In this document: in pieces, positions 1-16,168 of the stretch
Position numbering within the stretch: the first letter of the stretch is position 1
Layout of the letters: every line of letters begins with the position of its first letter
From: a virus
Direction: 5' to 3' (one strand)
Length of the DNA: 20,119 nucleotides
UHGV virus genome: UHGV-0174327
The notes under the pieces: model-generated
Databases searched by the model: none
The model's input: the letters and a program-made list of their open reading frames with translations, nothing else
What the model was told of the DNA's origin: nothing
Position numbers and translations under genes: made by a program

Positions 1-1
1 G

Positions 2-259
2 TTTACTACTAATGGTTTAGCAGAAAAAAACAACATTCAACTCCCAGAAAATACATCTATAAATCATTGGGTGAAAGGGCACTTTCTTTTCTCAGCATCA
101 TTAAGATTTATAACAAACTTTTTGGCATCCATCAATAAAAAAACCTCTATATCCAAGGATAGTTTTTACGCAAACATCTTGTCTGCATTTGAGATTTTTT
201 ATACAGAAGAACATGCTGATTATAGTTATTACAATCAAAAGATAGGGGCCATCACATAA
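2..259 (+). CDS. hypothetical protein, C-terminal fragment (5' end outside window); AT-rich accessory gene convergent with phage gene S
   Basis: Frame 2 is open from the window edge to TAA at 257-259 (...FTTNGLAEKNNIQLPENTSINHWVKGHF...QKIGAIT); ORF-track entry 71..259 is the tail of this frame; strongly AT-rich unlike the phage backbone. Confidence 0.35.
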   Translation, partial: FTTNGLAEKNNIQLPENTSINHWVKGHFLFSASLRFITNFLASINKKTSISKDSFYANILSAFEIFYTEEHADYSYYNQKIGAIT

Positions 260-267
260 AAAATAAA

Positions 268-287
268 GGCTGGCTTTTATGCCAGCC
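268..287. terminator. hairpin GGCTGGC-ttttat-GCCAGCC between convergent genes (overlaps the S stop codon)
   Basis: Perfect 7-bp inverted repeat with 6-nt loop seen directly; A/T-rich flanks on both sides. Confidence 0.35.
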
Positions 288-735
288 AATCCCCAGAAAA
301 TAAATTCATAATGAATATTTTTCGAATTAATTTTTCACATCCATTTAATCCAAGCAATTTTCTCTCTGCGTAACGGATCTCAGGTCCTTTGCGGCTGACG
401 CGATCACGTAGGCCGTAATGGTGAACGCGGGCAATGCGCTGTACCTTACCTTCAAACTGTACGCTGGCAGTATCCGCGCTGGCGGCAGTTTTCAGGTATT
501 TTGTAGTGCGCAGCTTTGTAAACATCTGACGTTTGATCCGCCCCTTTTTACTGCGTGCTGTTACCCGTCGCGGTTCATAGCTGCTGCCGTCAGGGTTGCG
601 CTGCATCCTGATATTATGCTGCTGTGTCCGGCGCAGTTCCTGCGACAGCTGGCGCATCATGCGGCTTCTTGCGGCTGGTTCTAGATTCGCCAGCAAGGCA
701 CTCAGCCAGTCGTCCACCTTCTGCAGTTCAGCCAC
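277..735 (-). CDS. S: tail completion / virion morphogenesis protein (P2 gpS family); GTG start overlapping R stop; last ~25 codons are AT-rich and may be replaced
   Basis: Translation MAELQKVDDWLSAL...QRNPDGSSYEPRRV...RIARVHHYGLRD matches the P2 S family as I recall it; position after R in P2 order. Confidence 0.75.
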   Translation of the reverse strand: MAELQKVDDWLSALLANLEPAARSRMMRQLSQELRRTQQHNIRMQRNPDGSSYEPRRVTARSKKGRIKRQMFTKLRTTKYLKTAASADTASVQFEGKVQRIARVHHYGLRDRVSRKGPEIRYAERKLLGLNGCEKLIRKIFIMNLFSGDWLA

Positions 736-1159
736 GTTTCACCGTCCACATTTCTTCAGGTTCATCGGGTTCTGCTACAGCTTCAACGCTCGACACACTG
801 CCGTCAGTACTGACCAGCACACGTTCCGTCAGTTGCAGGTTAAGGCTGATATCACAGACATCGTTGCGCAAAATATCCACCTCAAAGGTGAATAGCTTTT
901 CCCGTAACGCCGGGTTATTGATGGCATCGGGCTGGTTATCCCGAAGCCACAGTAAAACCGGGGCCATCAGCAGATTCTGGTCGCCGCTGAAATCCTCTAT
1001 CACCACGTTCAGGGTATAGCGGTACTCCCATGACATGGAGCTGGCCCCCGTGGCAACCAGCGAACCGTTATCCACAAACAGATGCAGTTTGTCCGGGTTA
1101 TTGCGGACATAAGGCACCGCTTTATTGAGGGCGTGGCGCAGGGATTGTGGTTTGTTCAC
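728..1159 (-). CDS. R: tail completion protein (P2 gpR family)
   Basis: VNKPQSLRHALNKAVPYVRNNPDKLHLFVDNGS... resembles P2 R; GTG at 1159 preceded by AGGAG (spacing 7); ORF-track start at 1180 is a TTG without SD. Confidence 0.75.
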   Translation of the reverse strand: MNKPQSLRHALNKAVPYVRNNPDKLHLFVDNGSLVATGASSMSWEYRYTLNVVIEDFSGDQNLLMAPVLLWLRDNQPDAINNPALREKLFTFEVDILRNDVCDISLNLQLTERVLVSTDGSVSSVEAVAEPDEPEEMWTVKRG

Positions 1160-1412
1160 TGTTTCGCTCCTGACACGCAATAATCATGTCCACTTTGTCT
1201 GCACAGACCGCCCAGGCGGCCTCCGTTTCATCCAGCAACGCGTTCAGATCACCGTTAGTGCGCGGCGCTGCCTGCCCCAGCCGACACGGCGTCACTCGCG
1301 GACAACCACTGACGGTAAGCTGCACCTCCGGTGAGTGTGGGGCGTTCCCGCAGCCGGATAATGTCAGCAGGCAAAGGAGTATCAGCCCAGCGGCGTAAAT
1401 CCTCGTTCTCAC
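1122..1412 (-). CDS. lysC: o-spanin (Rz1-like lipoprotein, P2 LysC equivalent) embedded in alternative frame of lysB and extending past it
   Basis: N-terminus MRTRIYAAGLILLCLLTLSGC has a lipobox (LSGC); Pro-rich body; nested/overlapping arrangement with LysB typical of Rz/Rz1. Confidence 0.6.
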   Translation of the reverse strand: MRTRIYAAGLILLCLLTLSGCGNAPHSPEVQLTVSGCPRVTPCRLGQAAPRTNGDLNALLDETEAAWAVCADKVDMIIACQERNSEQTTIPAPRPQ

Positions 1413-1683
1413 GTTTCAGTTCCTCAATCCGGTGTTGTCGTTGTCTCAGCAGTACACTGGTCTGTTCTGCTTCGGCATAGAGCCGCGCCTGCTCCCGGTT
1501 ATTGGTTTCAGTCAGAATGGACAGGCTGATAAGCTGGCTGTTGCTCTTTGCCAGTGCATGGCTTTTGCTCCGAAGCTCGTCTGCCTGCGTGCTGATGGTC
1601 TGGCTGGCATCAGCCAGCCGCCACGTCTGCCAGCCCAGCGCCGCCAGTAATAACGCCAGCACAACCAGCAGCAACCGGTTCAT
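1255..1683 (-). CDS. lysB: i-spanin (Rz-like, P2 LysB equivalent)
   Basis: N-terminal TM segment LLLVVLALLLAALGW followed by charged coiled-coil-like region (EELKRENEDLRR); position after lysA. Confidence 0.7.
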   Translation of the reverse strand: MNRLLLVVLALLLAALGWQTWRLADASQTISTQADELRSKSHALAKSNSQLISLSILTETNNREQARLYAEAEQTSVLLRQRQHRIEELKRENEDLRRWADTPLPADIIRLRERPTLTGGAAYRQWLSASDAVSAGAGSAAH

Positions 1684-2057
1684 GCTGCTACCTGTTGCGC
1701 CATCTGATTACGGGTGATCCAGAAGGCAATAACGGTCAGTAGATAAAAGACCAGGGTAATAGCCCACCCCGTCCAGGCGAGACTGACGACAATCAGCAAT
1801 CGCATCATCCAGCTGATAAATACGTTTTCTTTTCGGGTAATTGTCTTCAGCAAAGATGCCCTCAACTCCTGCCAGAGCGGGCCGTTCTTAATTAACGCAG
1901 CCAGTGATACCGGAATTACTGCCCATGTCAGCAGACAGGCTACCCAGACACCAGATGCTGCCAGTACTGGAAAAATCCCCTGCGGATACACCATTGCGGC
2001 GATTAACAGCGCTATCCATAACATCAGAAACAGCCCGCTGATTACTTTCTTTTTCAT
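1680..2057 (-). CDS. lysA: membrane protein, lysis regulator (P2 LysA position)
   Basis: Multi-TM hydrophobic protein starting MKKKVISGLFLMLWIALLIAA; ATG at 2057 directly after endolysin stop; ORF-track start 2129 is an upstream extension. Confidence 0.55.
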   Translation of the reverse strand: MKKKVISGLFLMLWIALLIAAMVYPQGIFPVLAASGVWVACLLTWAVIPVSLAALIKNGPLWQELRASLLKTITRKENVFISWMMRLLIVVSLAWTGWAITLVFYLLTVIAFWITRNQMAQQVAA

Positions 2058-2058
2058 T

Positions 2059-2571
2059 TCAGTTTGCTCCCTGTAAGCACCAGGCCATCTCCCGCGCACG
2101 GCGGTTATCCAGCCCCTGATTAAACACACCTTTTACATACACCCAGCGCGGCAACTGTCGGCACGCATCCGCCCAGCGCCGCTGATTGAGCAATTTCACC
2201 AGCGTGGAACTGCAGGCATTGCCCGTTCCCACGTTGAAGGCAAACGACACCACCGAGTCATACACCTTTTGCGGCGGCTGTTGCTTCACACACCTTTCCA
2301 GCGCCCGCTCCACACGTAGCACGTTGGAGATCAGCCCTTCCGCTGCCTGTCGTTCCGTAATGGTTTTTCCTGGAATGACACCTGATGTATTACCAATGCC
2401 GTCGGTCCAGACACCCGCGCTGCACTGATACGGCTGCAGACGACAGCCTTCGTAATCGGCAATCAGTTTCAGCCCCTCCACGGAGGTGTGAAGTTGCTGA
2501 AAACCCGGTAGCGTGGCAGCAATAGCCAGCACGGCCCCGACAAGGCAGCGTTTAACGATTGATGGATTCAT
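2059..2571 (-). CDS. SAR-type endolysin (T4-lysozyme-like, phage P1 Lyz / phage 21 R-like) with N-terminal signal-anchor-release domain
   Basis: N-terminus MNPSIVKRCLVGAVLAIAATLPG (weakly hydrophobic, Gly/Ala-rich), then EGLKLIADYEGCRLQPYQCSAGVWTDGIGNT, closely resembling P1 Lyz as recalled; SD GGGAGGA before ATG. Confidence 0.8.
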   Translation of the reverse strand: MNPSIVKRCLVGAVLAIAATLPGFQQLHTSVEGLKLIADYEGCRLQPYQCSAGVWTDGIGNTSGVIPGKTITERQAAEGLISNVLRVERALERCVKQQPPQKVYDSVVSFAFNVGTGNACSSTLVKLLNQRRWADACRQLPRWVYVKGVFNQGLDNRRAREMAWCLQGAN

Positions 2572-2767
2572 AGTCCTCCCGCGAGATCTGCCCGTCGCGC
2601 AGAAGCTGGTAGGCTTTGTGTTTGTAGTACCAGTTGATAGCCAGCATCAGCACACCAATCATCAGGCCGCCCAGCGTTGAGGCATCCTTGATGGACAAAT
2701 CGCCCAGCCAGGCCAGCACGACGGCGATGCAATACGTGATAAAGGCGCTGATTCGCTCAAGCGTCAT
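2552..2767 (-). CDS. small two-TM holin (pinholin-like) overlapping endolysin start
   Basis: 71 aa with two hydrophobic helices (ISAFITYCIAVVLAWL; LGGLMIGVLMLAINWYY) and charged C-terminus; located immediately upstream of the SAR endolysin. Confidence 0.6.
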   Translation of the reverse strand: MTLERISAFITYCIAVVLAWLGDLSIKDASTLGGLMIGVLMLAINWYYKHKAYQLLRDGQISREDYESINR

Positions 2768-2770
2768 AAT

Positions 2771-2974
2771 TCAGTCCCATAGCTGGACGGTCTGCACGGT
2801 GGTGGTGGTCGGAATGTCCGGCAGCTCCACCTGCAGCCCGTGAGGTAAAAAGGGGCCGTATTCGGCAAGCCCCGGATTTGCCTTCAGTACCTGCTCCGTG
2901 ACACCCTGCGTGCGCCCGTAATGACGCCAGCAAAGCGCGTCCACCGTGTCATACTGATGCGCACGCACTTTCAT
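2771..2974 (-). CDS. X: tail protein X (P2 gpX family)
   Basis: 67 aa, ...DTVDALCWRHYGRTQGVTEQVLKANPGLAEYGPFLPHGLQVELPD... resembles P2 X; conserved position between L and holin. Confidence 0.8.
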   Translation of the reverse strand: MKVRAHQYDTVDALCWRHYGRTQGVTEQVLKANPGLAEYGPFLPHGLQVELPDIPTTTTVQTVQLWD

Positions 2975-3438
2975 CAGATAAGCTCCACTGTGCAGTGCGG
3001 CGCATCCTGCACCCGGCTGATGGCCCAGCGGGCGTCACGCCACAAATCACCGCTTGCTTCCGCCAGTTCCTCGCCCCGCTTCACACCGGACGCCGTGGCG
3101 TCATAGTCCTGGTAACGTTCGTTGAGCATGGCGCGTGCCCAGCAGTAAACCGCGTTGAAATAGTGCTGAATGCGCTCACTTTTGCCGTCCAGCTGTTCCG
3201 CCGGAACCTCAGCCAGCGACACATACCCCAGCATCTGCTGACATCTGCGAAACTCATACAGCTCTGCGTTGACCTCCGAAATTGCCGACAGCGCAACCTG
3301 CTTTAAACGCGGCTGCGTCACCGTGCCGTCAGTGCGCATCACGCTGCGAAACTCCGACAGGTCCACATCAGGCCAGAACGGCGTATTCCTGATGATTTCC
3401 GCCTGTTCCGGTGCCTGTTCTGGCGCAACAAACTTCAT
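2974..3438 (-). CDS. L: head completion/stabilization protein (P2 gpL family)
   Basis: Start at ATG 3438 preceded by AGGAGAAAG; ORF-track start 3501 lacks SD; position between M and X. Confidence 0.75.
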   Translation of the reverse strand: MKFVAPEQAPEQAEIIRNTPFWPDVDLSEFRSVMRTDGTVTQPRLKQVALSAISEVNAELYEFRRCQQMLGYVSLAEVPAEQLDGKSERIQHYFNAVYCWARAMLNERYQDYDATASGVKRGEELAEASGDLWRDARWAISRVQDAPHCTVELI

Positions 3439-3533
3439 GCTGCTTTCTCCTGAAATAGAGGGCGGTGGACGGGGTTTTGATGTGGCAGTGCCTTTCGCCA
3501 CCCCGTGCCGCCCGTGCGCGGGGGCACGTTCTG

Positions 3534-4184
3534 TCAGCGGCTGTCATTGCGCAGTCTGCGCTCCAGCTGCTGTTTGTCTTTTTTCACGCCACAGCGAGGA
3601 TCGAGCTGTAACGCATGGTTGAGATGATTAAGGGCGGAAGCCGGGTTGCTTTCACTCAGGACAGCGCCAATCGCTTTATGCAGACGCGCCCGTGACTGGT
3701 CCGGCATATCCAGACCGTCTGTCAGCTCCAGCGTCTGCAGCAACAGATCGGCATCAAAGCCGGTGGCGGCAAGCATTGCGCTCTGCGCCGCGTCTGCCAT
3801 TTCCTCTGCCAGCACGGTCTGCACGTTGCGGTTACCCAGCGGCATCACCCAGCCATGACGCAGGGCATGACGCCCGATCTCCAGCGCCCCTGCATAATCT
3901 CCGGCATCAATGCGCCACAGCATCACGTACATCAGCACGTCATCCTGTTGAGCGCCTCCGGCAGCCAGAACGCCCTCCGCCCAGGCGGCATATTTCGGCA
4001 GCAGCTCCACCTTGATTTCTGCTTTTTTGACCGTGGACTGAACGCCCTTGAGACGGCGGCGGTCTTCCGCCAGTTGCAGCAGCATCAGGTCATAGCCCGA
4101 CGCGTGGCGAACACTGCCACCCTCGCGAGCGGCCTGTTCAGCCTGAACGCGCAGGCGATGCTGCCGTGCGGGACTCAGGCTCAT
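3534..4184 (-). CDS. M: terminase small/endonuclease subunit (P2 gpM family)
   Basis: 216 aa; ...QSTVKKAEIKVELLPKYAAWAEGVLAAGGAQQDDVLMYVMLWRIDAGDYAGALEIG... resembles P2 M; synteny N-M-L. Confidence 0.85.
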   Translation of the reverse strand: MSLSPARQHRLRVQAEQAAREGGSVRHASGYDLMLLQLAEDRRRLKGVQSTVKKAEIKVELLPKYAAWAEGVLAAGGAQQDDVLMYVMLWRIDAGDYAGALEIGRHALRHGWVMPLGNRNVQTVLAEEMADAAQSAMLAATGFDADLLLQTLELTDGLDMPDQSRARLHKAIGAVLSESNPASALNHLNHALQLDPRCGVKKDKQQLERRLRNDSR

Positions 4185-4187
4185 GAA

Positions 4188-5246
4188 TTACGCTCCGGTT
4201 TCTGCTGCGGCGGCGCTGAAGTCACCAATCTGGATGTTTTCCACCAGTGCAGCGCAGCGATAGTCCTCAACCACATAGGCTTCGTTAACGGATTCAAAAT
4301 TTTCAATCCGGTCACGTTTCGGGTTGTCGATAACTGAACGGCGGCGGGTATCTTCCTGCCAGTAGATGGACAGGTTATCCAGACGGGTGATCAGCAGCGC
4401 ATTCGGCGGGAAGAACGGCGCACGCACTGCCTGCAGGCCACCCATGCGTTTCTGACTGATGATCATATCGGCAGCCAGTTTTTCACTGTTTTCCTGCTCT
4501 TTGTTGACCAGTGGGAAATACTTGTCAGACAGCAGTTCACGACCGCAAATCACCACCAGATCGTCATCGTCCTGGTAGACCACATCGATAAGCTCATTGA
4601 CGGCATCCATCACTACGGCGTCCAGGTTGGCATATTCGCCACCTTTCCCGACTTTCACCGCGCCCGGAGTGGTTTCACCGCCCGTGGTGGTGCTGCCCAT
4701 GACGTGATCCGGTGCATCTTCACGGATTTTCTGCAGCCAGCCTTTGTTCACATCCTGCAGCAGCGGGTTTTCGCTACGGTTGGAGGTTTTCGCACGCTTC
4801 ACGCCGTTAAAGCCGATCATGATGCGGTCCAGTGCCTGACGTTTTACGATGGCGTCACGGATACGCACCTGGAAATCCTGAAACTTCGCCCACAGGTCCA
4901 GCTTCGCGTAGGTCAACACCGTGTCAAAGTTAGTCTGCTCGCATTTGTATTCCACATCGACCATTAGCGTCGGATCGACAGGCTCACGCTCTTTAGCTGT
5001 GGTATCAGTGGTTCCGGCAATGGTGCTGCCAACACCCAGCCCCAGCAACTGACCAGACTGCTCAGTCACTGGCGTGACGTTAATCAGCGTCAGGAATGCG
5101 GCGGACTGCTGGATCTGATCTTCCAGCGTCTGCTGCACAGACGGCTCTACAGTGAACTTGCTGGACAGTTCTTCAACGGCCACACCGTTCAGACGCGCCA
5201 GCTGCTGCAGGTAAGCGTTAAAAGCAAAGCGGGTATTCTTCTTCAT
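4188..5246 (-). CDS. N: major capsid protein (P2 gpN family)
   Basis: 352 aa; MKKNTRFAFNAYLQQLARLNGV...FTVEPSVQQTLEDQIQQSAAFLTLINV... strongly resembles P2 N. Confidence 0.9.
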   Translation of the reverse strand: MKKNTRFAFNAYLQQLARLNGVAVEELSSKFTVEPSVQQTLEDQIQQSAAFLTLINVTPVTEQSGQLLGLGVGSTIAGTTDTTAKEREPVDPTLMVDVEYKCEQTNFDTVLTYAKLDLWAKFQDFQVRIRDAIVKRQALDRIMIGFNGVKRAKTSNRSENPLLQDVNKGWLQKIREDAPDHVMGSTTTGGETTPGAVKVGKGGEYANLDAVVMDAVNELIDVVYQDDDDLVVICGRELLSDKYFPLVNKEQENSEKLAADMIISQKRMGGLQAVRAPFFPPNALLITRLDNLSIYWQEDTRRRSVIDNPKRDRIENFESVNEAYVVEDYRCAALVENIQIGDFSAAAAETGA

Positions 5247-5262
5247 CGGGTTTTGTGCTCCA

Positions 5263-6096
5263 TCAGCAATTGGTCAGAGTGTCAGCGGGGGCGTTACCGC
5301 CTGTTGCACGCTGGCGGTAGTCCTGGCGGCTGTCTTCATGACTCAGCTTATTCACCAGTTCGTTAAAGGCGGTCTGCTGTGCCTGCAGGGCAGTCTCCAG
5401 CTCAGACAGACGTTCTTCCTGCTCAGACAGGGATTTTTCGGTGCGTGCGCTCAGGTTTTGCTGCTCAGTGGCGACCAGCTCCACGGCCTTATGCACATCA
5501 GAGAACCGGGCATCGTCGGACTGCTCTTTTTTGGTGAACAGTGCCGTGACGCGGGCAAACAGGGACGGCTTGTCCTCCTGGATTTCTTCCAGTTCGATCA
5601 CCGTTTCCTCTGCGGCGGTAAAGAGATTGGCGGGATTCTGCTTGCGGTTTGCCAGCGGGTTATGGGCTGCACTGGCGCTGAATGTCAGCATTTCAGTGCC
5701 CAGACTGGCAGGGTCATCAGTGGCAGCCAGGCCGACCAGGTAGGCTTTGCCCGTATCAGCAAACTTCGGACTGACTTCCATAGATGTGAATAATTTCTGG
5801 CCTTTTTTCACCAGTTTCACCAGGGATTCCGTTGGCTCAACGTCGGCATACAGCGCCATCTTGCCTGCCAACGGACCTTCCGTGATTTCTTCAGCAAACA
5901 GCGCCGTCACCTTGCCGTAGCGGTTAAAGGTGCTGTCCGGCAGATAAGACTTGATGTGCTCAAGGTTAATCAGCGCGGTATACACCGCCGGGTTGTAGCT
6001 GGCTGCCATCTGTTCCAGCCATTCACGCTGGATTTCGCGTCCGTCGGTGGTGGCACCTTCCACCCCGATGCGAAAACGCTTTGCTTTCACTGTCAT
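5263..6096 (-). CDS. O: capsid scaffolding protein/protease (P2 gpO family)
   Basis: 277 aa; ...RFRIGVEGATTDGREI...INLEHIKSYLPDSTFNRYGKV...YLVGLAATDDPASLGTEML...ATGGNAPADTLTNC resembles P2 O. Confidence 0.9.
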   Translation of the reverse strand: MTVKAKRFRIGVEGATTDGREIQREWLEQMAASYNPAVYTALINLEHIKSYLPDSTFNRYGKVTALFAEEITEGPLAGKMALYADVEPTESLVKLVKKGQKLFTSMEVSPKFADTGKAYLVGLAATDDPASLGTEMLTFSASAAHNPLANRKQNPANLFTAAEETVIELEEIQEDKPSLFARVTALFTKKEQSDDARFSDVHKAVELVATEQQNLSARTEKSLSEQEERLSELETALQAQQTAFNELVNKLSHEDSRQDYRQRATGGNAPADTLTNC

Positions 6097-6174
6097 GAGC
6101 CGTGCTCCGTTAGAAAAAACTTACTGGAGCCTTATGGTTGCGGTGATGGGGGCAGTGAAACAATGCGCGGTATT

Positions 6175-6192
6175 TGTACCGACAACCACACA
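6175..6192. promoter_or_regulatory. TGT-N12-ACA dyad in the divergent O/P late promoter region (candidate Ogr/B-type late activator site)
   Basis: TGTaccgacaaccacACA seen at 6175-6192, about 85 bp upstream of the O start codon; P2-family late promoters carry a TGT-N12-ACA activator site. Confidence 0.35.
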
Positions 6193-6238
6193 AACCGCAG
6201 GCGGGGAAAGCCTTCATTCAAGGCTGTAGGTTTGTGCC

Positions 6239-8005
6239 ATGAACACCACACTGACACCCGCAGATCTCGATCCCCGTCGGCAGGCCATGCTGCTGTACTT
6301 TCAGGGATACCGCGTCGCCCGCATTGCTGAAATGCTGGGCGAGAAAGTTGCAACTGTTCACAGCTGGAAAAAACGCGACAAGTGGGGTGACTATGGGCCG
6401 CTGGATCAGATGCAGCTCACCACCGCCGCACGCTACTGCCAGCTCATTATGAAGGAGCACAAAGAAGGGAAAGATTTCAAAGAGATTGACCTGCTGGCGC
6501 GCCAGTCGGAGCGCCACGCGCGGATCGGCAAGTTTAACAATGGCGGCAACGAAGCCGACTTAAACCCTAACGTCGCCAACCGCAACAAAGGCCCACGCCG
6601 TCAGCCGGAAAAGAATGTTTTCACCGATGAACAGATTGAGAAGCTGGAAGAAATCTTCCATTCCTCCATGTTCAACTACCAGCGCCACTGGTGGGAAGCC
6701 GGAAAAACCAACCGCATCCGCAACCTGCTGAAGTCACGCCAGATCGGCGCAACCTTCTATTTTGCCCGTGAAGCCCTGATTGACGCCCTGCTGACCGGAC
6801 GTAACCAGATTTTCCTTTCCGCCAGCAAGGCACAGGCCCACGTCTTTAAGCAGTACATCTTCGACTTCGCCAAAGAAGTGGAGGTGGAGCTGAAAGGTGA
6901 TCCGATGGTGCTTCCTAACGGTGCCACGCTTTACTTCCTCGGCACCAATGCCCGCACTGCCCAGAGTTATCACGGCAACCTGTATCTGGATGAATATTTC
7001 TGGATACCGAAATTTCAGGAGCTGCGTAAAGTGGCTTCCGGTATGGCTATTCACAAAAAATGGCGACAAACCTATTTTTCCACGCCATCAAGCCTGACCC
7101 ACAGTGCTTATCCGTTCTGGTCCGGTGCGCTGTTCAACCGTGGACGCAACAAAGCCGACAAGGTGGACATCGACCTGTCCCACAGCAATCTGGCCCCCGG
7201 CCTGCTGTGCGCAGACGGGCAATACCGCCAGATAGTCACCGTGGAAGATGCGGTGCGCGGCGGCTGCAACCTGTTCGACCTTGACCAGTTGCGCATGGAG
7301 TACAGCCCGGACGAATACCAGAACCTGCTGATGTGCGAGTTTGTGGACGATCTCGCGTCCGTGTTTCCGCTCAGCGAGCTGCAGGCGTGCATGGTGGACA
7401 GTTGGGAAGTCTGGACCGACTTTCATGCACTGGCCCTTCGCCCGTTTGGGTGGCGCGAAGTGTGGATCGGTTATGACCCGGCAAAAGGTACGCAGAACGG
7501 CGACAGCGCCGGATGCGTGGTGGTGGCACCGCCAGCCGTGCCGGGCGGTAAGTTCCGTATTCTTGAGCGCCACCAGTGGCGCGGGATGGACTTCCGCGCC
7601 CAGGCGGACGCCATCAAAAAACTGACCGAACAGTACAACGTGACATATATCGGCATCGACTCGACGGGTGTCGGTCACGGGGTTTACGAGAACGTGAAAG
7701 CGTTTTTTCCTGCCGTCCGGGAGTTTGTCTACAACCCCAACGTTAAAAATGCCCTGGTACTCAAGGCATACGACATTATCAGCCACCGCCGTCTGGAGTT
7801 TGACGCCGGGCACACCGACATTGCGCAGTCATTCATGGCAATCCGTCGCGCCACCACCGCCAGTGGCAACCGCCCGACCTATGAAGCCAGCCGCAGCGAA
7901 GAAGCCAGCCACGCCGATCTGGCCTGGGCAACGATGCACGCACTGTTTAATGAACCGCTGCAGGGCGAGTCCGCCAATACAAGCAATATTGTGGAGATTT
8001 TTTGA
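6239..8005 (+). CDS. P: terminase large (ATPase) subunit (P2 gpP family)
   Basis: 588 aa; family-typical length and sequence; divergent from O as in P2. Confidence 0.9.
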   Translation: MNTTLTPADLDPRRQAMLLYFQGYRVARIAEMLGEKVATVHSWKKRDKWGDYGPLDQMQLTTAARYCQLIMKEHKEGKDFKEIDLLARQSERHARIGKFNNGGNEADLNPNVANRNKGPRRQPEKNVFTDEQIEKLEEIFHSSMFNYQRHWWEAGKTNRIRNLLKSRQIGATFYFAREALIDALLTGRNQIFLSASKAQAHVFKQYIFDFAKEVEVELKGDPMVLPNGATLYFLGTNARTAQSYHGNLYLDEYFWIPKFQELRKVASGMAIHKKWRQTYFSTPSSLTHSAYPFWSGALFNRGRNKADKVDIDLSHSNLAPGLLCADGQYRQIVTVEDAVRGGCNLFDLDQLRMEYSPDEYQNLLMCEFVDDLASVFPLSELQACMVDSWEVWTDFHALALRPFGWREVWIGYDPAKGTQNGDSAGCVVVAPPAVPGGKFRILERHQWRGMDFRAQADAIKKLTEQYNVTYIGIDSTGVGHGVYENVKAFFPAVREFVYNPNVKNALVLKAYDIISHRRLEFDAGHTDIAQSFMAIRRATTASGNRPTYEASRSEEASHADLAWATMHALFNEPLQGESANTSNIVEIF

Positions 8006-9051
8006 TGGGAAAGAGTAAGAAAAACCGCGCTGCGGCGATGAATCACATCCAGCATAAAAGCCAGACTTCAGCCGAAGCATTCAGCTTCGGCGATCCCGTT
8101 CCTGTTCTGGACCGCCGAGAATTACTGGACTATGTGGAATGCGTACAGATGGACCGTTGGTATGAGCCGCCCGTCAGCTTTGACGGACTGGCGCGCACCT
8201 TCCGCGCCGCCGTGCATCACAGTTCCCCGATTGCAGTAAAGTGCAACATTCTGACCAGTACCTATATCCCTCATCCGCTGCTCAGCCAGCAGGCTTTTTC
8301 GCGTTTTGTGCAGGACTATCTGGTATTTGGTAACGCCTACCTGGAGAAACGCACGAACCGCTTCGGTGAAGTTATCGCCCTTGAACCGACCCTGGCAAAA
8401 TACACCCGACGCGGATTAGACCTGGATACCTACTGGTTTGTGCAATACGGCATGACTACGCAGCCGTATCAGTTCACGAAAGGCAGCATTTTTCATCTGA
8501 TGGAACCGGACATCAACCAGGAGATCTACGGCCTGCCCGGTTATCTTTCTGCCATTCCGTCAGCCCTGCTCAACGAGTCCGCCACGCTGTTCCGCCGCAA
8601 GTATTACATTAACGGCAGTCATGCAGGCTTCATCATGTACATGACCGATGCAGCGCAGAACCAGGAGGATGTGAACAACCTCCGCAATGCGATGAAAAGC
8701 GCCAAAGGTCCTGGTAACTTCCGTAACCTGTTTATGTACTCGCCTAACGGTAAAAAGGACGGGCTTCAGATTATCCCGTTGTCAGAAGTGGCGGCGAAGG
8801 ATGAGTTCCTGAATATCAAGAACGTGAGCCGGGACGACATGATGGCGGCGCATCGTGTGCCGCCACAAATGATGGGGATAATGCCTAATAATGTCGGGGG
8901 GTTTGGGGATGTAGAAAAGGCAAGCCGTGTCTTTGTCCGCAACGAGTTGATACCTCTGCAGAAACGCCTACAGGAACTTAACAACTGGCTGGGCGATGAA
9001 GTTATACGTTTCGAGCCGTACACTTTAGATATTCAGAATGAAAAGAAATAA
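8005..9051 (+). CDS. Q: portal protein (P2 gpQ family)
   Basis: ATG at 8005 overlaps P stop (TGATG); 348 aa; sequence and length fit P2 Q. Confidence 0.9.
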   Translation: MGKSKKNRAAAMNHIQHKSQTSAEAFSFGDPVPVLDRRELLDYVECVQMDRWYEPPVSFDGLARTFRAAVHHSSPIAVKCNILTSTYIPHPLLSQQAFSRFVQDYLVFGNAYLEKRTNRFGEVIALEPTLAKYTRRGLDLDTYWFVQYGMTTQPYQFTKGSIFHLMEPDINQEIYGLPGYLSAIPSALLNESATLFRRKYYINGSHAGFIMYMTDAAQNQEDVNNLRNAMKSAKGPGNFRNLFMYSPNGKKDGLQIIPLSEVAAKDEFLNIKNVSRDDMMAAHRVPPQMMGIMPNNVGGFGDVEKASRVFVRNELIPLQKRLQELNNWLGDEVIRFEPYTLDIQNEKK

Positions 9052-9079
9052 AAGTTAGCGAATAAAAATCATTAGCATA

Positions 9080-9098
9080 GGCCGCAAACTGAGCGGCC
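9080..9098. terminator. bidirectional hairpin terminator between portal (+) and the 89-aa gene (-)
   Basis: GGCCGC-aaactga-GCGGCC followed by T-rich tract on + strand and by A/T-rich run on - strand. Confidence 0.45.
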
Positions 9099-9105
9099 TT
9101 ATTCA

Positions 9106-9375
9106 TTACCAATTTCTTTTTTCGGAGTTTAGCCAATCACCGCATGGATAATATCTTGACGCCCATTCACCTTGTAAACGAGCTACAAACAGAATATCGT
9201 TACTATCGACCCTGGCTTGGAGTCCGTCACGCAGTTGAGTTGCGGTCAGCGTTGTATCTACTAACCAAAATGATTCAAGATATTTACAGTATGTAAATTG
9301 CTTTAGATAGTCAAAAACTTCATCGTAGTTTCTTCCCGGAGCCTTCAAGTCATAGGTTATACAATAAATAGCCAT
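9106..9375 (-). CDS. hypothetical 89-aa soluble protein (accessory cassette B, distal gene)
   Basis: MAIYCITYDLKAPGRNYDEVFDYLKQF...DSNDILFVARL; AT-rich; 3 nt downstream of the zinc-ribbon ORF; alternating beta/alpha pattern vaguely reminiscent of VapD/Cas2-like small proteins (unverified). Confidence 0.55.
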   Translation of the reverse strand: MAIYCITYDLKAPGRNYDEVFDYLKQFTYCKYLESFWLVDTTLTATQLRDGLQARVDSNDILFVARLQGEWASRYYPCGDWLNSEKRNW

Positions 9376-9378
9376 TCT

Positions 9379-9561
9379 CTAAGCTCCGCATTTTTTATCA
9401 TTTGGGGAACATCTTAACCTGCGACATTTGCGGCAATACGATTGAGGGATCAGCCGCTCTCCTTCCATAGTTCTAAAACCAAACACTTCTTCAATTTTGT
9501 TCAAATCACCACTTGCAATAACCCCACAGCAGGGGCAGACAGCCTCAATTTGAAATGCCAT
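9379..9561 (-). CDS. hypothetical ~60-aa zinc-ribbon protein (accessory cassette B, proximal gene)
   Basis: MAFQIEAVCPCCGV...CRKCRRLRC with CxxC...CxxC spacing; ATG at 9561 preceded by GGAGA (spacing 5); ORF-track start 9624 is an upstream extension. Confidence 0.5.
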   Translation of the reverse strand: MAFQIEAVCPCCGVIASGDLNKIEEVFGFRTMEGERLIPQSYCRKCRRLRCSPNDKKCGA

Positions 9562-9660
9562 GTCTATCTCCATTCCACATGTTGAATGTAGGGTAATACT
9601 TCCTTTCAAGCAAAAATGAGACAAGGATCTTGAAACCTAATTTAAACTTGCTTGCGCGCG

Positions 9661-9679
9661 CTCGTATCCCCGCCACGCC
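9661..9679 (-). other. cos-like site (cohesive-end sequence) of the prophage
   Basis: Reverse complement reads GGCGTGGCGGGGATACGAG followed by CGCGCGC; the P2/P4 cohesive end as I recall it is GGCGAGGCGGGGAAAGCAC followed by TGCGCGC (14/19 identical); location downstream of portal Q is where P2 has cos. Confidence 0.45.
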
Positions 9680-9714
9680 TGCCCGCTTTTTGTAGCGATT
9701 TTCATGCAGGTGCA

Positions 9715-9748
9715 TGACATAAGCAAAAGCCCACCAGAACTGGCGGGC
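9715..9748 (-). terminator. rho-independent terminator ending the three-gene cassette A
   Basis: Stem GCCCACCAG/CTGGCGGGC (one mismatch) followed on the minus strand by UUUUGCUU. Confidence 0.4.
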
Positions 9749-9796
9749 CTCAGCAAAAACGATCCTCAAACGATCATGCATATTCATGCGGCATAG

Positions 9797-10306
9797 TCAT
9801 GCAGTGACTTTGGTCTGGTCAGGCGTAGAAAAATCTTCGAAAGATTTATAAGTTTCAGTATCAAATATTGAAATACTCTCAACCTGATCCATTGGGATTA
9901 CATGCCTAAAATGATTTAAGTTCAGTGGAGTTGAGTCTGCTGTAATATTTTTACTAAGGTAAAGTTCATAGTAACGATGCTGCTCATGGTATCTGAGCGT
10001 ATCTTTATCACGATAACCACTGATGTATGGTATGAGAGCCAGATGCTGAGTTTCCTGATGCTCCATCCGAGGAGCAGCTACGTAACCAATGTAAACTTTT
10101 CTGGATTTTAGCGTAACAAAGATGAGCTTACCTTCATCTATAGCCTGAACTAACAGTGACTCAATTCCATCTTGAGCTGCCATCTCGCGATATGCAGATT
10201 GACGAATCTCTTCGTTTTCTATTGCTCTTCGCGCATTGTTACCTTGGTCATAAGCAATAAACACCGCAAGCAGCATAGACAACACAAAGAACAATGGGTA
10301 AGACAT
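9797..10306 (-). CDS. hypothetical ~169-aa protein with N-terminal TM helix and soluble C-terminal domain (cassette A, gene 3)
   Basis: MSYPLFFVLSMLLAVFIAY then hydrophilic domain; start at ATG 10306 five nt after the gene-2 stop (ORF-track 10342 is a GTG extension overlapping gene 2); AT-rich. Confidence 0.55.
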   Translation of the reverse strand: MSYPLFFVLSMLLAVFIAYDQGNNARRAIENEEIRQSAYREMAAQDGIESLLVQAIDEGKLIFVTLKSRKVYIGYVAAPRMEHQETQHLALIPYISGYRDKDTLRYHEQHRYYELYLSKNITADSTPLNLNHFRHVIPMDQVESISIFDTETYKSFEDFSTPDQTKVTA

Positions 10307-10311
10307 TATCT

Positions 10312-10578
10312 TTACGTCTGTGAGCCATGAATAAAAGTCCACATGTAACTTAGGCCAAAAATAACCAAAAAATTGATAACTGAGCTTATAACTAGCAAGG
10401 TAACGAATGTAACAGCCATCAGAGTAAACCCCTGAATAGCAAACTTACAACCATGCATAGCTACATAAAAATAGGAATTCCAACCATTACTTCTTGCTTG
10501 CCTGATGCGGGACTGGTAATGATTTTCGGTGTACCAGAACCCGCAAACCAGGACGACCATGATAACTAAGGGTCCCAT
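10312..10578 (-). CDS. hypothetical 88-aa integral membrane protein, two predicted TM segments (cassette A, gene 2)
   Basis: PLVIMVVLVCGFWY and FTLMAVTFVTLLVISSVINFLVIFGLSYMW hydrophobic stretches; start coupled to gene-1 stop (AAGGATGAGGAATG). Confidence 0.55.
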   Translation of the reverse strand: MGPLVIMVVLVCGFWYTENHYQSRIRQARSNGWNSYFYVAMHGCKFAIQGFTLMAVTFVTLLVISSVINFLVIFGLSYMWTFIHGSQT

Positions 10579-10581
10579 TCC

Positions 10582-10782
10582 TCATCCTTGTCGTTTTGCA
10601 GCCAATTCTTCCATTCTGGCACGCATTGATTCACGTACCTGCTTATTGTTCATGTTTAAGGTCGCCGCACCATTAGCATCTGTGATAATTTTACTATTAT
10701 CAGACTGTTGCACATCCTGACGGATGACATCCTGCATAATCTTACCTGGTGCAGAGAGAACTTTGCGCAGAAGTTCAGACAT
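10582..10782 (-). CDS. hypothetical 66-aa hydrophilic protein (cassette A, gene 1)
   Basis: MSELLRKVLSAPGKIMQDVIRQ...; ATG at 10782 preceded by AAGGAGG (spacing 5); ORF-track start 10857 is an upstream extension. Confidence 0.5.
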   Translation of the reverse strand: MSELLRKVLSAPGKIMQDVIRQDVQQSDNSKIITDANGAATLNMNNKQVRESMRARMEELAAKRQG

Positions 10783-10835
10783 ATTTTCCTCCTTATGCCT
10801 CAAACGCCACGGATTGTGGTGCATGGAAGCTGTCA

Positions 10836-10880
10836 TCTTATGATTATAGGACAACAAAAATACGAAACTATTCGAAGAGT
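10836..10880 (-). promoter_or_regulatory. candidate sigma70 promoter for cassette A (perfect TATAAT -10 on minus strand at 10848..10843)
   Basis: Minus strand reads ...ttgttgtccTATAATcataag...; -35 is weak (TAGTTT); about 55-nt leader to the ATG at 10782. Confidence 0.3.
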
Positions 10881-11001
10881 GCTACGTATTAACCTATTTA
10901 CATATCACCCTGCAACCAATTTATCCATAACTAACGCCTCGCACGGCTCGTTGCTCAACCTTGCGAACGGTAAAAACCAGTTTTATCGTCCGCAACGTTC
11001 C

Positions 11002-11232
11002 CTAATGTAACCAGCTGTCGTCTTCCCACACCTTCTGCATAATTTTCATCACTTGCTTCCTTTCTTCGTCCAGTTGCAGTCCGGTCAGTTCCACACCGTT
11101 AGAGCTACCTTTGCGGATACGAATTACCGTTTTGGGATACAGGGGGCGCAGATTGCGGTAAAGCTCGGATTCAAGGGCGTCCAGTGTAGACTGGCTAATC
11201 TTCTGCTCTTTATCGATCATTATTTCAATGCG
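11002..11232 (-). CDS. dinI: DinI-family protein (SOS-regulated RecA modulator homologue)
   Basis: MRIEIMIDKEQKISQSTLDALESELYRNLRPLYPKTVIRIRKGSSNGVELTGLQLDEERKQVMKIMQKVWEDDSWLH parallels E. coli DinI (MRIEVTIAK...WESADDW) as recalled; SD GAGGTGA; downstream of a LexA box. Confidence 0.7.
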   Translation of the reverse strand, partial: RIEIMIDKEQKISQSTLDALESELYRNLRPLYPKTVIRIRKGSSNGVELTGLQLDEERKQVMKIMQKVWEDDSWLH

Positions 11233-11245
11233 CATAAAAGTCACC

Positions 11246-11434
11246 TCAGCTGATGACATCCATTGAGCGGTTGTATTCGTGGGTTCTGATTTTTGCCATG
11301 AGTTCATCTGTTAGTTCAGAAACCCACTGCAAAGCCAGCCCCTTCTCTTCATCACTACACTCACTAGCCGCTACAAGCTTAAGAAAAAAATCAATGCGCT
11401 GGAGCTTCAAAGACTCCAAAAAATAGTCCTGCAT
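11246..11434 (-). CDS. hypothetical 62-aa protein, first gene of the LexA-controlled operon (possible Tum-like antirepressor, speculative)
   Basis: ATG at 11434 preceded by AGGAGGAAAG; about 45 nt downstream of a canonical LexA box; position corresponds to the 186 tum locus. Confidence 0.45.
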   Translation of the reverse strand: MQDYFLESLKLQRIDFFLKLVAASECSDEEKGLALQWVSELTDELMAKIRTHEYNRSMDVIS

Positions 11435-11474
11435 CTTTCCTCCTATGACACCAAAGCAATACTGTATACATAAC

Positions 11475-11494
11475 CACTGTTTATATTTACAGTA
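11475..11494. promoter_or_regulatory. LexA operator (SOS box) overlapping the promoter of the 62-aa/dinI-like operon
   Basis: CTGT-ttatattt-ACAG (11477..11492) fits CTGT-N8-ACAG with AT-rich spacer; a weaker overlapping CTGT-N8-CCAC half-match at 11462..11477; TATACT -10-like hexamer adjacent on minus strand. Confidence 0.6.
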
Positions 11495-11586
11495 TATAAT
11501 AATCTTACTGATGTAAAACGTTTTTTTACGTTCATCAGCCTGATATGCCTGGTATTATTAAGAGCACGAATTGTTAACCCGCGTAA

Positions 11587-11943
11587 TTAATACAGGTTCC
11601 GCCACTTATCATCTTCCTTCAGACGCTGGTTCCGATAGAAGATACGCAGGCCTGCTCCTGACGGAATACTGCCACCGCGAAGGAGTAAATCGACCTCTTT
11701 CTCGCTGCCATCAAATCCTCTGGACTTCAGTTCATAGACGAGCTGCTGTCGTTGATGGTCTGTAATTCGCTGTTTGTAGTCTCTACGCCGTTTCGGTTTC
11801 ACCAGGCGTAACCTTACAGCCAGCTCCCGGCGCTCTTTTTTGTTCATACTGTGCAGAAAATCGTGCAACTCCTTGTCATCCATGCGGGTAATATCCGTTC
11901 TGGTGTCCCCATCAGCTGATTTATCTTTCTCCTGTTGGTTCAA
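11587..11943 (-). CDS. hypothetical basic protein downstream of and overlapping replication gene A; start uncertain (TTG 11943, or ATG 11883)
   Basis: Lys/Arg-rich ([22 protein letters not shown]); no strong SD at any candidate start; conserved position after A in P2-like phages. Confidence 0.4.
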
Positions 11944-14027
11944 ATTTTCAGCAAGGGGACAGTTATTGCCACGAGTCCAAGGGGACAGTTATTGCCACGA
12001 GTCCAAGGGGCGCAAGCGCCCTGGTCGGCTGCCGCCTCCTGAACGTCAACGGCCTTACGAACCATTTTCCACTTCACTGCATGAGTGCAGATCTTGCCCT
12101 CTGCAATGGGTGACCAGATGCCATAAATACGAATACCGTGATCACCATAGGCGGTCGGCTCTTCGTTGATTTCATAAGCGGTTCTGATCAAGTGATATTT
12201 GCGGGGAACCAACACGCCGCCCTGCTTCATAATGTAGGTGGCAAAACAGCCAGCATCAGCAGCAGCCAGAATGGCATCAAGACGCGGATCATCCAGTACC
12301 GGCGCACCTGCTTTTTTGTCACCCTGCTGCCTTGCCGCCTGACCAGCCAGCAATCGCAGTTCACGGTAAGCCTGACGCCCCGGAATGCCAAAGAAGCGGA
12401 ATTGCTGAACACGATGCAGAGACGCCCAGGCATTAACGTATTCAGCGTTATCACGCAGGGATTTACCCGTTTCCTTGCTGATCTCGCCAGCCAGACCACG
12501 CCCGTCAATGTTCTTACTGATGTATTTCGCGATGTAGCTTGTCGGCGTTCCTTTGCGCGGGTTAATCAGCTCAGACTTAAAGCGTGGCCCCGTGTTATTG
12601 CCCAGTTCCTCGCGGTCTTCACGGATGGCAAACTTACGCAGTAATGCAGTGATGGCGCGGCGGTCTTTTTTACGCATGAAGCACATGAGATGCCAGTGCA
12701 CAGTACCGTCATGATGCGGCTCAGCCACCCGCACGCCATACCACCGCAATCCGGCTTTGTGCATCGCCTTACGAAATGCAGCAAACATGCCGACCAGATA
12801 ATCACTGCTTTGTCTTACCGTCGCATTTGTCCAGGTCGGGTTTGGTCTGCCGTTATTGAGCGTGGAATGGAAACGTGACGGACAGGTGATGGTGTAGAAA
12901 ACGGCGCAGTCACCGCGCATTTCCGCGATAAGCTCCAGACCTTTAACGCAGGCCATCATCTCATTGCGGCGATGTGCCGGGTTGCTGCTGCTGGCGTTTA
13001 CCACATCTTCCATATCCAGCGTGTCTCCGTCTTCGTTCACCAGTTCATGAGAACGGAAAAACTCCAGCGACTTGCGGCGCTGCTCACGTTTATGCGTCAC
13101 TGCTTCATAGCTGACATAGGGAGATGCTTTTTTGCTGACCAGACAGACAGCACGCAACTGCTCTTCCCGCCATTCGCAACGCATCTTCCACAATTTTCGA
13201 TACCACCAGTCGGCGCAAAGCATACGTGCCAGCGAACCCGGTATGAGTTCATAGGGCACAGGTTTGCGGCGGTTTCTTTTCCGACGAAGTTTCTCAAACG
13301 CAGGCGGGATAACATCCAGACGCAGGGTTTCCGCAGCCACCTTTTCCCATGTCTTGCGGATTTCTTCTGGCTTAACGTCATCGGTGGCGTACAAATCACC
13401 ACAAGCGGCCTCAAGACACATGCTCATATGCGCTGCTACCAGGGTGGACAGGCGTTTCACCTGATCCTGGCTCATTTCAGGCAGGATCAGCAGCCCCTCC
13501 AGCCCTTGATGGCTTGCCATAAAACGGAAAGAAACAGATAGCTGACTGTCACGTACACAATCCAGTCGCTCCAGACATGGCTTAATCGTCTCACGCAAAT
13601 AGCGGGAATAAGCCTTTGGCCTGCCCAGGCTGCTGAAGTATTCGATACGTTGCATCAGCGGCTTGCTGATATGAGAAGGCTGGGCGCTGACATCTGCCAG
13701 AATGACCATGTCCGGGTTAAAACGCTGCTGCTCATGCGCCAGCTTTGCCCGGCTAATGAGCTTATCCTGCTCCATTTCGCGCTGGACAGGATCACGGGAT
13801 TCATTAAAGAAATAACGCTCCCAGACCTGCTCACTCAGTGCCTCGCGGCGCAGTTGTTCCTGCTCGTTATCGGCAGCGTACAGAGTGATCAGGTTTGAAA
13901 GTGCAGACTCCGGCGCAACTTCCGCCGGATCCAGATAAGGGTTAATGGCCTTTTTCGGGCCGTTCCATGAAAATGCTGCGGCAGCCTCGTTAAAGCCGCT
14001 AGAGTTGCTCATATCGTCATGACTCAT
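11940..14027 (-). CDS. A: replication initiation endonuclease (P2/186 gpA family, rolling-circle initiator)
   Basis: 695 aa, size and sequence consistent with 186/P2 A; ATG at 14027 overlaps dam stop (ATGA). Confidence 0.85.
11952..12010. repeat. tandem direct repeat, 26 bp x 2.3 (CAAGGGGACAGTTATTGCCACGAGTC) inside the 3' end of gene A
   Basis: Copies at 11952..11977 and 11978..12003 are identical; partial third copy CAAGGGG at 12004..12010, followed by palindrome GGGCGCaaGCGCCC. Confidence 0.85.
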
Positions 14028-14881
14028 ACACGCACCTCGTACACAGCAGAACTATCCACGCCACGCGAAGGATCAAATCCCATCCAGCAGCGCGACCCGG
14101 AAACAGCAATGATTTCTGTTGCAGATTTACTCTCGCCAGCTGACACGCCGATGCTGCGTTTTGCCTTGATGTAGTGGTGAGTGAAATTGCGATACAGCGA
14201 ACGGATCAGGGATGTGTCACTGTTAGAAACAATGACCGGATGACCTTCTGATGATCGATATTCAAGAACGGATGCCAGGTGATACTGGTCATCTTCAGTG
14301 AAGCCGTCAGTGTGATAACCGGAAAACGTGCCGTCATACGGCGGATCGCAATACACCACATCCCCCGCCTTCAACATCGCCAGCGTTTCATCAAAGCTGG
14401 CGCAGATAAACGTTGCTCGCTGGGCCTTTTCTGCAAATGCGTGAATTTCTTTTTCAGGGAAATACGGATTTTTATAATTACCGTAGGGAATGTTGAAATG
14501 CCCGCTCTTGTTATAGCGACATAAACCACGGTAACCGTGACGATTGAGATACAGGAAATATACCGCTTTCATGAAATCAGTAATTTCAGTTGAGTAATTA
14601 AACTCCTGCCTTATGTTGTAATAAGCTAGGTCACTGTTTGCTTCCTCAAACAAAGTTCTGGTCCGCGATATAAACGCCTCGCAATCAGCGGCAATCTTTT
14701 TATAGAGGTTGATTAAATCAGGATTAATATCCGCAACCAGATAGCTGGGGTAATCCGTCTCCATCATCACAGCACAGGAACCCGCGAAAGGTTCAACCAG
14801 TCGCGGGCCAGCAGGTAGGTATTTTTTCAGTTCGGACATAATTGCGGTTTTATTTCCCGCCCATTTCAGGATGGTGCTCAT
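14024..14881 (-). CDS. dam: DNA adenine methyltransferase (Dam-family, DPPY motif)
   Basis: [11 protein letters not shown]...EPFAGSCAV...VYCDPPY...; ATG at 14881 overlaps upstream stop; ORF-track start 14941 is an extension. Confidence 0.85.
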
Positions 14882-15105
14882 ACAGCACCTCCGTTGTAAT
14901 GTTTGCCTTTCAGCTCTGCGATTTCCTGACAGGTAATGCAAAGCTGCACTCCAGGAATGGCACGGCGGCGTGCTGGCGGAATTGGTGCTTCACATTCAAT
15001 GCAAAGCACGCGAGACACGCCCGGTGTTTTGGCACGGGCAGCACGGATATGGCGCTGGCGTTCTTCTTCAACGCGCTGCTGTACGAGATCCATTGCATCA
15101 GCCAT
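14878..15105 (-). CDS. TraR/DksA-family C4 zinc-finger protein
   Basis: CIECEAPIPPARRRAIPGVQLCITCQ four-cysteine motif near C-terminus, 75 aa. Confidence 0.65.
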   Translation of the reverse strand: MADAMDLVQQRVEEERQRHIRAARAKTPGVSRVLCIECEAPIPPARRRAIPGVQLCITCQEIAELKGKHYNGGAV

Positions 15106-15344
15106 TAGTGGATCTCCTGCGCTTCGTTCTGGATTGCTTCAGCGGTCACACGCAGCAGTTCTGCTGCTTCGACGTGGTTTAGCTGGCGGGATGTGATATG
15201 ACACGCCAGGCTATCAAGGCGGGCAGCCATTGCCTCAGCCCTTGCCCGACGTTCTTCAAGTCGGGCCTCTGTCAGTAAAAGATTAAGACCTGCATCATCC
15301 GGTCCGGTTTTAGTCGTGAGGGTTTCAATATTACGCATAATCAA
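15105..15344 (-). CDS. hypothetical early-operon protein (P2-like conserved small ORF)
   Basis: 79 aa, tightly packed in operon; no recognisable motif. Confidence 0.5.
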   Translation of the reverse strand: MIMRNIETLTTKTGPDDAGLNLLLTEARLEERRARAEAMAARLDSLACHITSRQLNHVEAAELLRVTAEAIQNEAQEIH

Positions 15345-15405
15345 TTCTCCTGAATTTAGATAAAGGGATGCCCGGCGGGTTTACGCCATGAATTTTATTT
15401 ATTGG

Positions 15406-16161: not shown

Positions 16162-16168
16162 AAGCACC

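Follow-up and report, generated by a model that had tools for sequence, protein, structure and literature searches.

A probable PARIS-type ATPase and nuclease cassette in the orf30 slot, between tail genes S and V, of a P2/186-like prophage

The virus genome stretch UHGV-0174327, analysed over its full 20,119 nucleotides (the window), contained a P2/186-like prophage whose left edge is, in our judgement, probably the end of a divergent PARIS-type ATPase and nuclease cargo module in the slot occupied in phage P2 by orf30. GC content in window positions 1-350 was 0.306, the minimum among all 350-nt intervals of the 20 kb, compared with 0.51-0.62 in the adjoining late genes, and the drop from ~0.55 to 0.31 fell at ~350-362, within the 3' end of tail gene S. 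Gene S (277-735, minus strand) encoded a 152-aa tail completion/virion morphogenesis protein (Pfam Phage_tail_S, 1.8e-37), which in Escherichia coli S56 and EC596 is RefSeq WP_001580541.1. A first-pass annotation made from the letters alone had put the end of phage-like GC near 360, had read the end of S as ...LLGLNGCEKLIRKIFIMNLFSGDWLA and had described its last ~25 codons as AT-rich; all three observations held, with a homology break at 343-364, a GC drop at ~350-362, the same translation, and a GC of 0.28 over the 23 codons that follow the residues LLG. It had also reported an opposite-strand frame entering from the window edge and ending at 259, and translation found the plus strand open from base 2 to a TAA at 257-259. 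This frame (2-259, plus strand) was the 3' end of an ariB-like DUF4435/Toprim gene, comprising residues 201-285 and the stop codon. Its product was identical at 84 of 85 positions to the same residues of a 285-aa protein in EC596, 2014C-3075 and others, F214L being the only AriB change private to the window, and included the family-invariant motif GHFLFS (encoded at approximately 77-94), of which G226, H227, F228, L229 and S231 were invariant in 36 homologues. The 85-aa fragment alone had no family match in Pfam or PADLOC, so its identity had to be taken from relatives.

The 17-bp gap between the convergent stop codons was filled by an intrinsic terminator of the late (O...S) operon (258-287, minus strand; stem 268-287, T-tract 258-267), which overlapped the last S codons. 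The hairpin that had been noticed at first pass between the two genes, GGCTGGC-N6-GCCAGCC, folded at -15.8 kcal/mol (z = -4.2), and none of 200 shuffles folded as well on the plus strand. On the minus strand, a terminator scan found seven pairs, six of them GC, followed by TTTATTTTTT, and classed the structure as an intrinsic terminator acting on the S transcript; the loop of the hairpin contained the S stop codon (277-279). In P2, the O-operon terminator is annotated at the corresponding position. No T-tract lay 3' of the 268-287 stem on the plus strand, and a bidirectional terminator was thus unsupported. Searching the entire window against Rfam at gathering thresholds gave no match, so the hairpin belonged to no known RNA family.

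The AT-rich DNA was followed leftward through relatives. Window positions 1-800 were found in three complete E. coli genomes, S56 and EC596 (both 99.8%) and 2014C-3075 (95.5%); the cassette was present in 3 of 5426 complete E. coli genomes, and megablast of window 1-800 against the phage collection returned no record spanning the AT-rich part. In all three genomes, this DNA was a 2.2-kb operon of 31% GC, convergent to S, with two genes overlapping by 14 nt that encoded an AAA_15/AAA_21 ABC ATPase (418 aa) and the DUF4435 Toprim protein (285 aa). Neither protein reached the cut-off of any NCBIfam model, hence their generic RefSeq names, 'AAA family ATPase' and 'DUF4435 domain-containing protein'. 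After the cassette in S56, 2014C-3075 and EC596 came V, W, J, I, H, the tail-fibre assembly genes and the sheath gene. A look-up of the exact S protein in 26 contigs resolved seven distinct places, all with the order S-DUF4435-AAA-V-W-J. The leftward extension and the domain search on the complete upstream protein that had been proposed at first pass, carried out in these relatives, yielded a 285-aa DUF4435 frame (Pfam 93.9 bits, PADLOC AriB 2e-21), the ATPase gene, and then V, W and J. Upstream of ariA, a 112-bp space was shared with the divergent late promoter of V (pV) and its TGT-N12-ACA activator site, and contained a promoter-like TTGAAA-17-CATAAT (10/12 consensus positions; L002 7065-7093) located 66 bp from ariA and back to back with pV. 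No transposase was present in the cassette, ruling out an insertion sequence (IS) element as the cause of the junction; in STIN_95, an IS1 lay at the S/V slot alongside a cargo gene. The EC596 prophage was rearranged (L009 4577-5231 / L103 1-3114), a truncated gpA replication endonuclease gene adjoining lysC/R and the lysis and head genes being missing at that point; its S-ariBA-V segment was intact.

Both cassette genes were intact at five of the seven places. In S56 (L001 7213-9259), ariA carried 52-bp and 1-bp deletions and ariB a 1-bp deletion, and in CP184825 (L104 4821-6076) ariA was split; sequencing error is possible for both sets of breaks. The copy in this genome could be a pseudogene remnant with no present function: the window differed from the disrupted S56 prophage at only two positions over the first 3 kb and carried the private F214L. 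Against this, GCA_958337565.1 (L100) was equally close, showing the same two differences over 4.2 kb together with an end-of-alignment gap, and both of its genes were intact, as they were at four other places; moreover, the 85 visible codons were open and kept the invariant motif. All relatives differed from the window at position 41, and all except CP184825 also differed at the A-run at 257. We consider loss of function in this genome unlikely, while giving it some weight.

Assignment of the cassette to PARIS was made on the complete genes of close relatives, the window itself covering only AriB residues 201-285. PARIS detection by Rousset et al. (2022) requires adjacent genes with AAA_15 at >=32 or AAA_21 at >=27 bits and DUF4435 at >=27 bits (PMC9122126); in 2014C-3075 the adjacent, overlapping genes scored 79.2, 70.9 and 93.9 bits, respectively, and the full cassette of the close relatives is a PARIS locus by this rule. 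PADLOC best matches were AriA for the ATPase (2e-38) and AriB for the DUF4435 protein (2e-21), and the best PDB sequence match of the ATPase was solved AriA (8ux9, E = 1e-20). The ATPase contained the expected ABC motifs: Walker A GRNGTGKT (31-38), signature LSSGE (336-340), Walker B IFLTDE (359-364) and the H-loop THS (394-396). In the AriB-like protein, acidic residues E34, D38, D84, D86 and E109 were invariant across the 36 homologues and corresponded, by order, spacing and fold match and without a residue-level sequence alignment, to E26, D30, D88, E90 and E122 of AriB from E. coli B185 (PMC11464382). Neither phmmer nor hmmsearch with the 36-sequence profile matched the AriB-like protein to any PDB sequence, even at E <= 1, leaving fold comparison as the sole link to solved AriB. 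Its AlphaFold model (pLDDT 91.9) had only two significant PDB fold matches, both AriB chains (8ux9_A and 8v46_D; probability 1.00, full length), with TM scores of 0.53-0.58 over ~320 aligned columns at 13-15% identity. Homologues occurred in Enterobacterales, Vibrio, Aeromonas, Shewanella and beyond.

Such low identity leaves room for a pair that is merely PARIS-like and works otherwise, for example as an OLD/Gabija-like DNA nuclease or as a prophage-stabilizing toxin-antitoxin, and not as a trigger-released tRNA nuclease. Along with the blank sequence searches and the lack of a named NCBIfam model for either protein, the ATPase also matched the PADLOC models for PtuA (~1e-23), MADS3 and GajA, and OLD-family Toprim regions came next in the structural ranking. 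Those regions were far weaker matches (E ~0.02, TM ~0.25) than the AriB chains, which alone were significant over the full length, and AriA and AriB were the top PADLOC models. In OLD and Gabija GajA, ATPase and Toprim domains share one polypeptide, whereas here they lay on two separate overlapping genes, as in PARIS; the partner of PtuA in Septu and retron PtuAB systems is the HNH protein PtuB, whereas the partner here was a DUF4435 protein with matches only to AriB/AriAB. A different mechanism is therefore improbable. P2 Old and GajA do share with the cassette the combination of an ABC-type ATPase with a Toprim nuclease, and they too are prophage-borne and exclude other phages; P2 old occupies the cos-adjacent hotspot and not S/V.

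If the cassette works like the PARIS system of B185, a lysogen would express an AriA scaffold that keeps AriB inactive. A protein of an incoming phage, Ocr in the case of B185 PARIS, would bind AriA and, in an ATP-dependent step, set AriB free; the released nuclease would dimerize and cut the anticodon stem-loops of host tRNAs, and the resulting halt in translation would abort the infection, protecting the lysogen population and with it the prophage. In B185, an AriA hexamer sequesters AriB, Ocr releases it, and AriB cleaves tRNA-Lys, tRNA-Thr and tRNA-Asn, leading to abortive infection (PMC11464382, PMC12409363). Expression in the lysogen, anti-phage activity, trigger and RNA target of the cassette are all drawn here from that analogy, whereas its anatomy, its site, its presence in some prophages and absence from others, its domains, the conserved catalytic motifs and the likeness of its fold to AriB were established directly.

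Several points weigh against placing a PARIS-type defence module at the left edge of the window. Only 85 cassette codons fall within it, from which the intactness of this copy cannot be read, and two of the seven closest relatives (S56 and CP184825) had a broken ariA. The AriB-like protein was just 13-15% identical to the studied AriB, which neither phmmer nor the 36-sequence profile recovered, and the AriA-like protein aligned significantly only over its C-terminal third and the Walker A region. The putative promoter upstream of ariA was a consensus match only, and the defensive role, trigger and target suggested for this clade are those of B185 PARIS.

The cassette resembled B185 PARIS, which is carried by a P4-like satellite (PMC9122126, PMC11464382; PDB 8ux9, 8v46), in having a two-gene operon of an AAA_15/AAA_21 ATPase followed by a DUF4435 Toprim protein, in its conserved ATPase motifs and Toprim acidic residues, in having solved AriB as best fold match, and in residing at a small, variable hotspot within a temperate element. 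It differed from B185 PARIS in sequence (AriB 13-15% identical) and in length (AriA 418 vs. 464 aa, AriB 285 vs. 306 aa); it also differed in its carrier, a helper-type phage with the cassette at S/V, in contrast to the satellite, where PARIS lies next to cos. PARIS and the orf30 slot were both already known, and automated defence finders would call this cassette. What it adds is a divergent phage-borne PARIS clade, whose trigger and tRNA specificity may differ given how distant its AriB is from the studied protein.

The cassette lay in a slot that was polymorphic for presence and absence. The prophage of strain a7, the most similar to the window overall (98.4% identity over 364-20119), had an empty slot with an S-V gap of 68 bp. 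When the occupied L100 was aligned with the empty a7 (L105), homology stopped just past the V start codon and resumed at window ~362, in the K-L-L-G codons of S. In comparisons with relatives lacking the cassette, DNA homology ended at window 343-364, and megablast matches to ~1000 E. coli records began in the same interval. We surveyed the slot in 80 IMG/VR relatives, two of which could not be scored because no V could be located downstream of S in the sequence available: 58 had an empty slot with the 68-bp gap, and 20 were occupied, with S-V gaps of 748-2229 bp and GC of 0.31-0.36. TGT-N12-ACA, the Ogr/activator site, was at -64/-65 from the V start in every surveyed case. The orf30 region is one of three moron sites of P2-like phages, together with the TO region and the Z/fun region (PMC6823313, PMC3091744), and the cassette had the features expected of an orf30-region moron: it occupied the interval from the S stop to the pV late promoter, some otherwise similar phages had it and others did not, and its GC was low (0.31 vs. 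~0.55).

P2 orf30 itself, which had been named at first pass as a low-GC accessory gene at this junction, does occupy the S/V position: it is convergent to S, from which an annotated late-operon terminator separates it, and the pV activator site lies beyond it. The cassette shared its position, its orientation convergent to S, its low GC, the terminator between S and cargo, and the pV activator site at the opposite end. P2 Orf30 differs in being a single protein, of 261 aa, that matches nothing in Pfam or PADLOC and is unrelated to the cassette, and the P2 terminator lies 30 bp beyond the S stop, whereas here it overlapped the stop. The first-pass proposal of a moron at the S/V junction was therefore borne out, with the cassette followed by V-W-J at seven places and an empty slot in a7; the replacement of the S C-terminus proposed with it was not, as described next.

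The right-hand boundary of the exchangeable module fell, by alignment, at 349-362, at the LLG/K-L-L codons of S: everything to its left was cassette-specific and everything to its right common P2/186-like backbone. The boundary is inside an essential gene, a modest extra point of interest, and it left the last 23 residues of S (130-152, LNGCEKLIRKIFIMNLFSGDWLA; 277-348 on the minus strand with the stop at 277-279) on the cassette side. S residues 1-129 had a GC of 0.56, twice that of the codons after LLG (280-348). The S proteins compared were alike up to LLG(129) and divergent beyond it, and the Pfam Phage_tail_S match stopped at residue 132. At empty S/V sites the tail was always VNDDVEAMTRDMILQWLAG or a one-residue variant, with GC of ~0.5, while eleven cargo types each had their own S tail of 18-25 residues and GC 0.16-0.39 (window 277-348; loci L005-L008, L010, L016 and L018-L097). 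The only exception to the linkage of tail and cargo was L095 (5447-6868), in which a 1420-bp insert of GC 0.35 lay beside an empty-type tail; it encoded a protein of 442 aa that matched nothing in Pfam or NCBIfam, and may have been inserted recently, precisely at the S stop.

One explanation for the odd C-terminus is accident, whereby foreign DNA was joined by illegitimate recombination and S now reads to the first stop. In favour of this, the tail equals the cargo in AT-richness (GC 0.28 vs. 0.31), is four residues longer than usual and ends in the terminator loop, and the Pfam model ceases to match at residue 132. The alignment of S suggested at first pass did find a difference after LLG(129), yet the tails were still related: in register from LLG, the window tail scored above all 5000 shuffles against the tail of the PARIS-b allele and at p ~0.001 by shuffling against the empty-site tail. 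All variants kept the pattern I-[KR]-x-[IM]-[LIF]-[IL]-x-x-[LW]-[LF], with the hydrophobic pattern of the C-terminal helix retained, the tails of eleven cargo types were of near-equal length, and such tails are found in phage records (vB_EcoM-813R9). The window allele ran four codons (DWLA) further than PARIS-b, into the hairpin, with the same stem in both. Since the tails are non-random in register, they point to a diverged S C-terminus travelling with its cargo and not to foreign sequence read by accident, an origin to which we give little credence. The comparisons support the view that the tail is a diverged, AT-rich form of the normal S C-terminus and part of the exchangeable module. The coding sequence of an essential gene thus matches the cargo in AT-richness. 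Cargo-specific tails offer a simple marker to find and type the cargo of this slot, even on short contigs.

Sequence divergence was consistent with exchange of the module between backbones. Between 2014C-3075 and the S56/EC596 lineage, the cassette differed at 12 of 2231 positions (0.5%; 99.5% identical), compared with ~4-5% in the flank on the V side and ~8% on the S side, and the near-identical tract began ~50 bp within V and ended at window 441, within S. The window and 2014C-3075 differed at three positions in 1-441 and at 7-11 per 100 bases from 442 on, and the crossover that joined the cassette to the two backbones (window/S56 type and 2014C-3075 type) was placed in the interval 257-442. 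Two further cassette alleles, with AriB identities of 72% and 44%, were found at the same S/V slot, in phage vB_EcoM-813R9 and in further P2-like prophages of E. coli. Like the cassette studied here, the PARIS-type cassettes of other E. coli P2-like phages (vB_EcoM-813R9, ON470620.1) comprised an ATPase of ~418 aa and a DUF4435 protein of 283-285 aa, had the same orientation between V and S, and each carried an AT-rich S tail; they differed in AriB (72% or 44% identical) and in the tails themselves (FNENNDCIKNILIMSLFNT; IHDKEYYQIKDTLFEWLSK). The 72% allele (L010 4858-4915, compared with window 260-290) had the same stem GGCTGGC/GCCAGCC, but outside S and with the T-rich run on the ariB-sense side, whereas the T-tract of the window allele serves the S transcript and S enters the hairpin.

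From these comparisons we propose a mobile cargo module of ~2.3 kb and 31% GC, lying in the interval from the S stop to the Ogr-dependent late promoter of V, of which the left 360 bases of the window would be the right-hand end. It would comprise the ariA-like/ariB-like operon convergent to S, its own last 23 S codons, the late-operon terminator, and a diverged form of the pV promoter region in which TGT-N12-ACA is retained (-64 relative to the V start). Related phages would exchange the module by homologous recombination within conserved S and V sequence. The alternative raised at first pass, that a decaying prophage was deleted or truncated at ~360, with host or unrelated AT-rich DNA beyond it and the tail genes gone, fits the absence of V, W and J from the window and the rearrangement of the EC596 prophage on the other side of R/lysC, but is refuted to the point of being scarcely credible by V, W, J, I, H and the sheath gene directly after the 2.2-kb cassette in every relative sharing the AT-rich DNA, and by boundaries that match the S-tail codons and the start codon of V exactly.

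The mobile cargo module has counterparts with other contents. S/V cargo elsewhere included an ApeA-like 584-aa protein (PADLOC 1e-13), a PDC-S15/FRG-domain protein (8e-32), two DUF6216 proteins, and five proteins of 228-503 aa without a significant family match, one of them with a sub-threshold DUF3112 (S-V gaps of loci L018, L021, L023, L034, L049, L055, L065, L082 and L093). These non-PARIS proteins are candidates for new defence genes. The old 'orf30' moron slot of P2-like phages therefore carries recognizable defence systems, including three PARIS alleles. In the literature consulted, we did not find S/V described as a defence hotspot, the hotspots named there being the cos-adjacent Q/A site (old/tin), Z/fun and tail/CI. 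In Serratia marcescens (L013-L015 2758-4858), an AriA/AriB pair with 65% identity lay in the other P2 hotspot, between portal and gpA, so the same system family uses both slots. We suggest, as a tentative reading, that S/V might be a third anti-phage hotspot of P2/186-like phages, with an exchangeable unit spanning the coding end of S, the late terminator and the pV region. A swap of defence genes would then also swap the C-terminus of the tail-completion protein and, should the S tails prove co-adapted or functionally distinct, defence turnover would be coupled to virion assembly. Beyond the slot and the S tails, the locus reflects standard prophage mosaicism and a fairly ordinary moron.

The remainder of the window followed the P2/186-like plan. 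From the left, S (277-735), R, lysC/B/A, K, Y, X, L, M, N and O were on the minus strand, P (6239-8005) and Q (8002-9051) were on the plus strand, and the host gene rcdA was at the right end. Next to Q, positions 9052-11940 formed the cos-adjacent (Q/A, 'TO') hotspot, AT-rich at GC 0.39-0.47. It contained open reading frames without a Pfam match, such as one of 181 aa at 9797-10342, and a DinI-like (Tum-type) gene at 11002-11307; in related prophages this hotspot carried AIPR, TIR or HNH proteins. The second-lowest GC in the window (0.35) was at 17326-18025, between the CI repressor gene (17052-17627) and the integrase gene, and in strain a7 the matching region contained an inserted ISKpn26.

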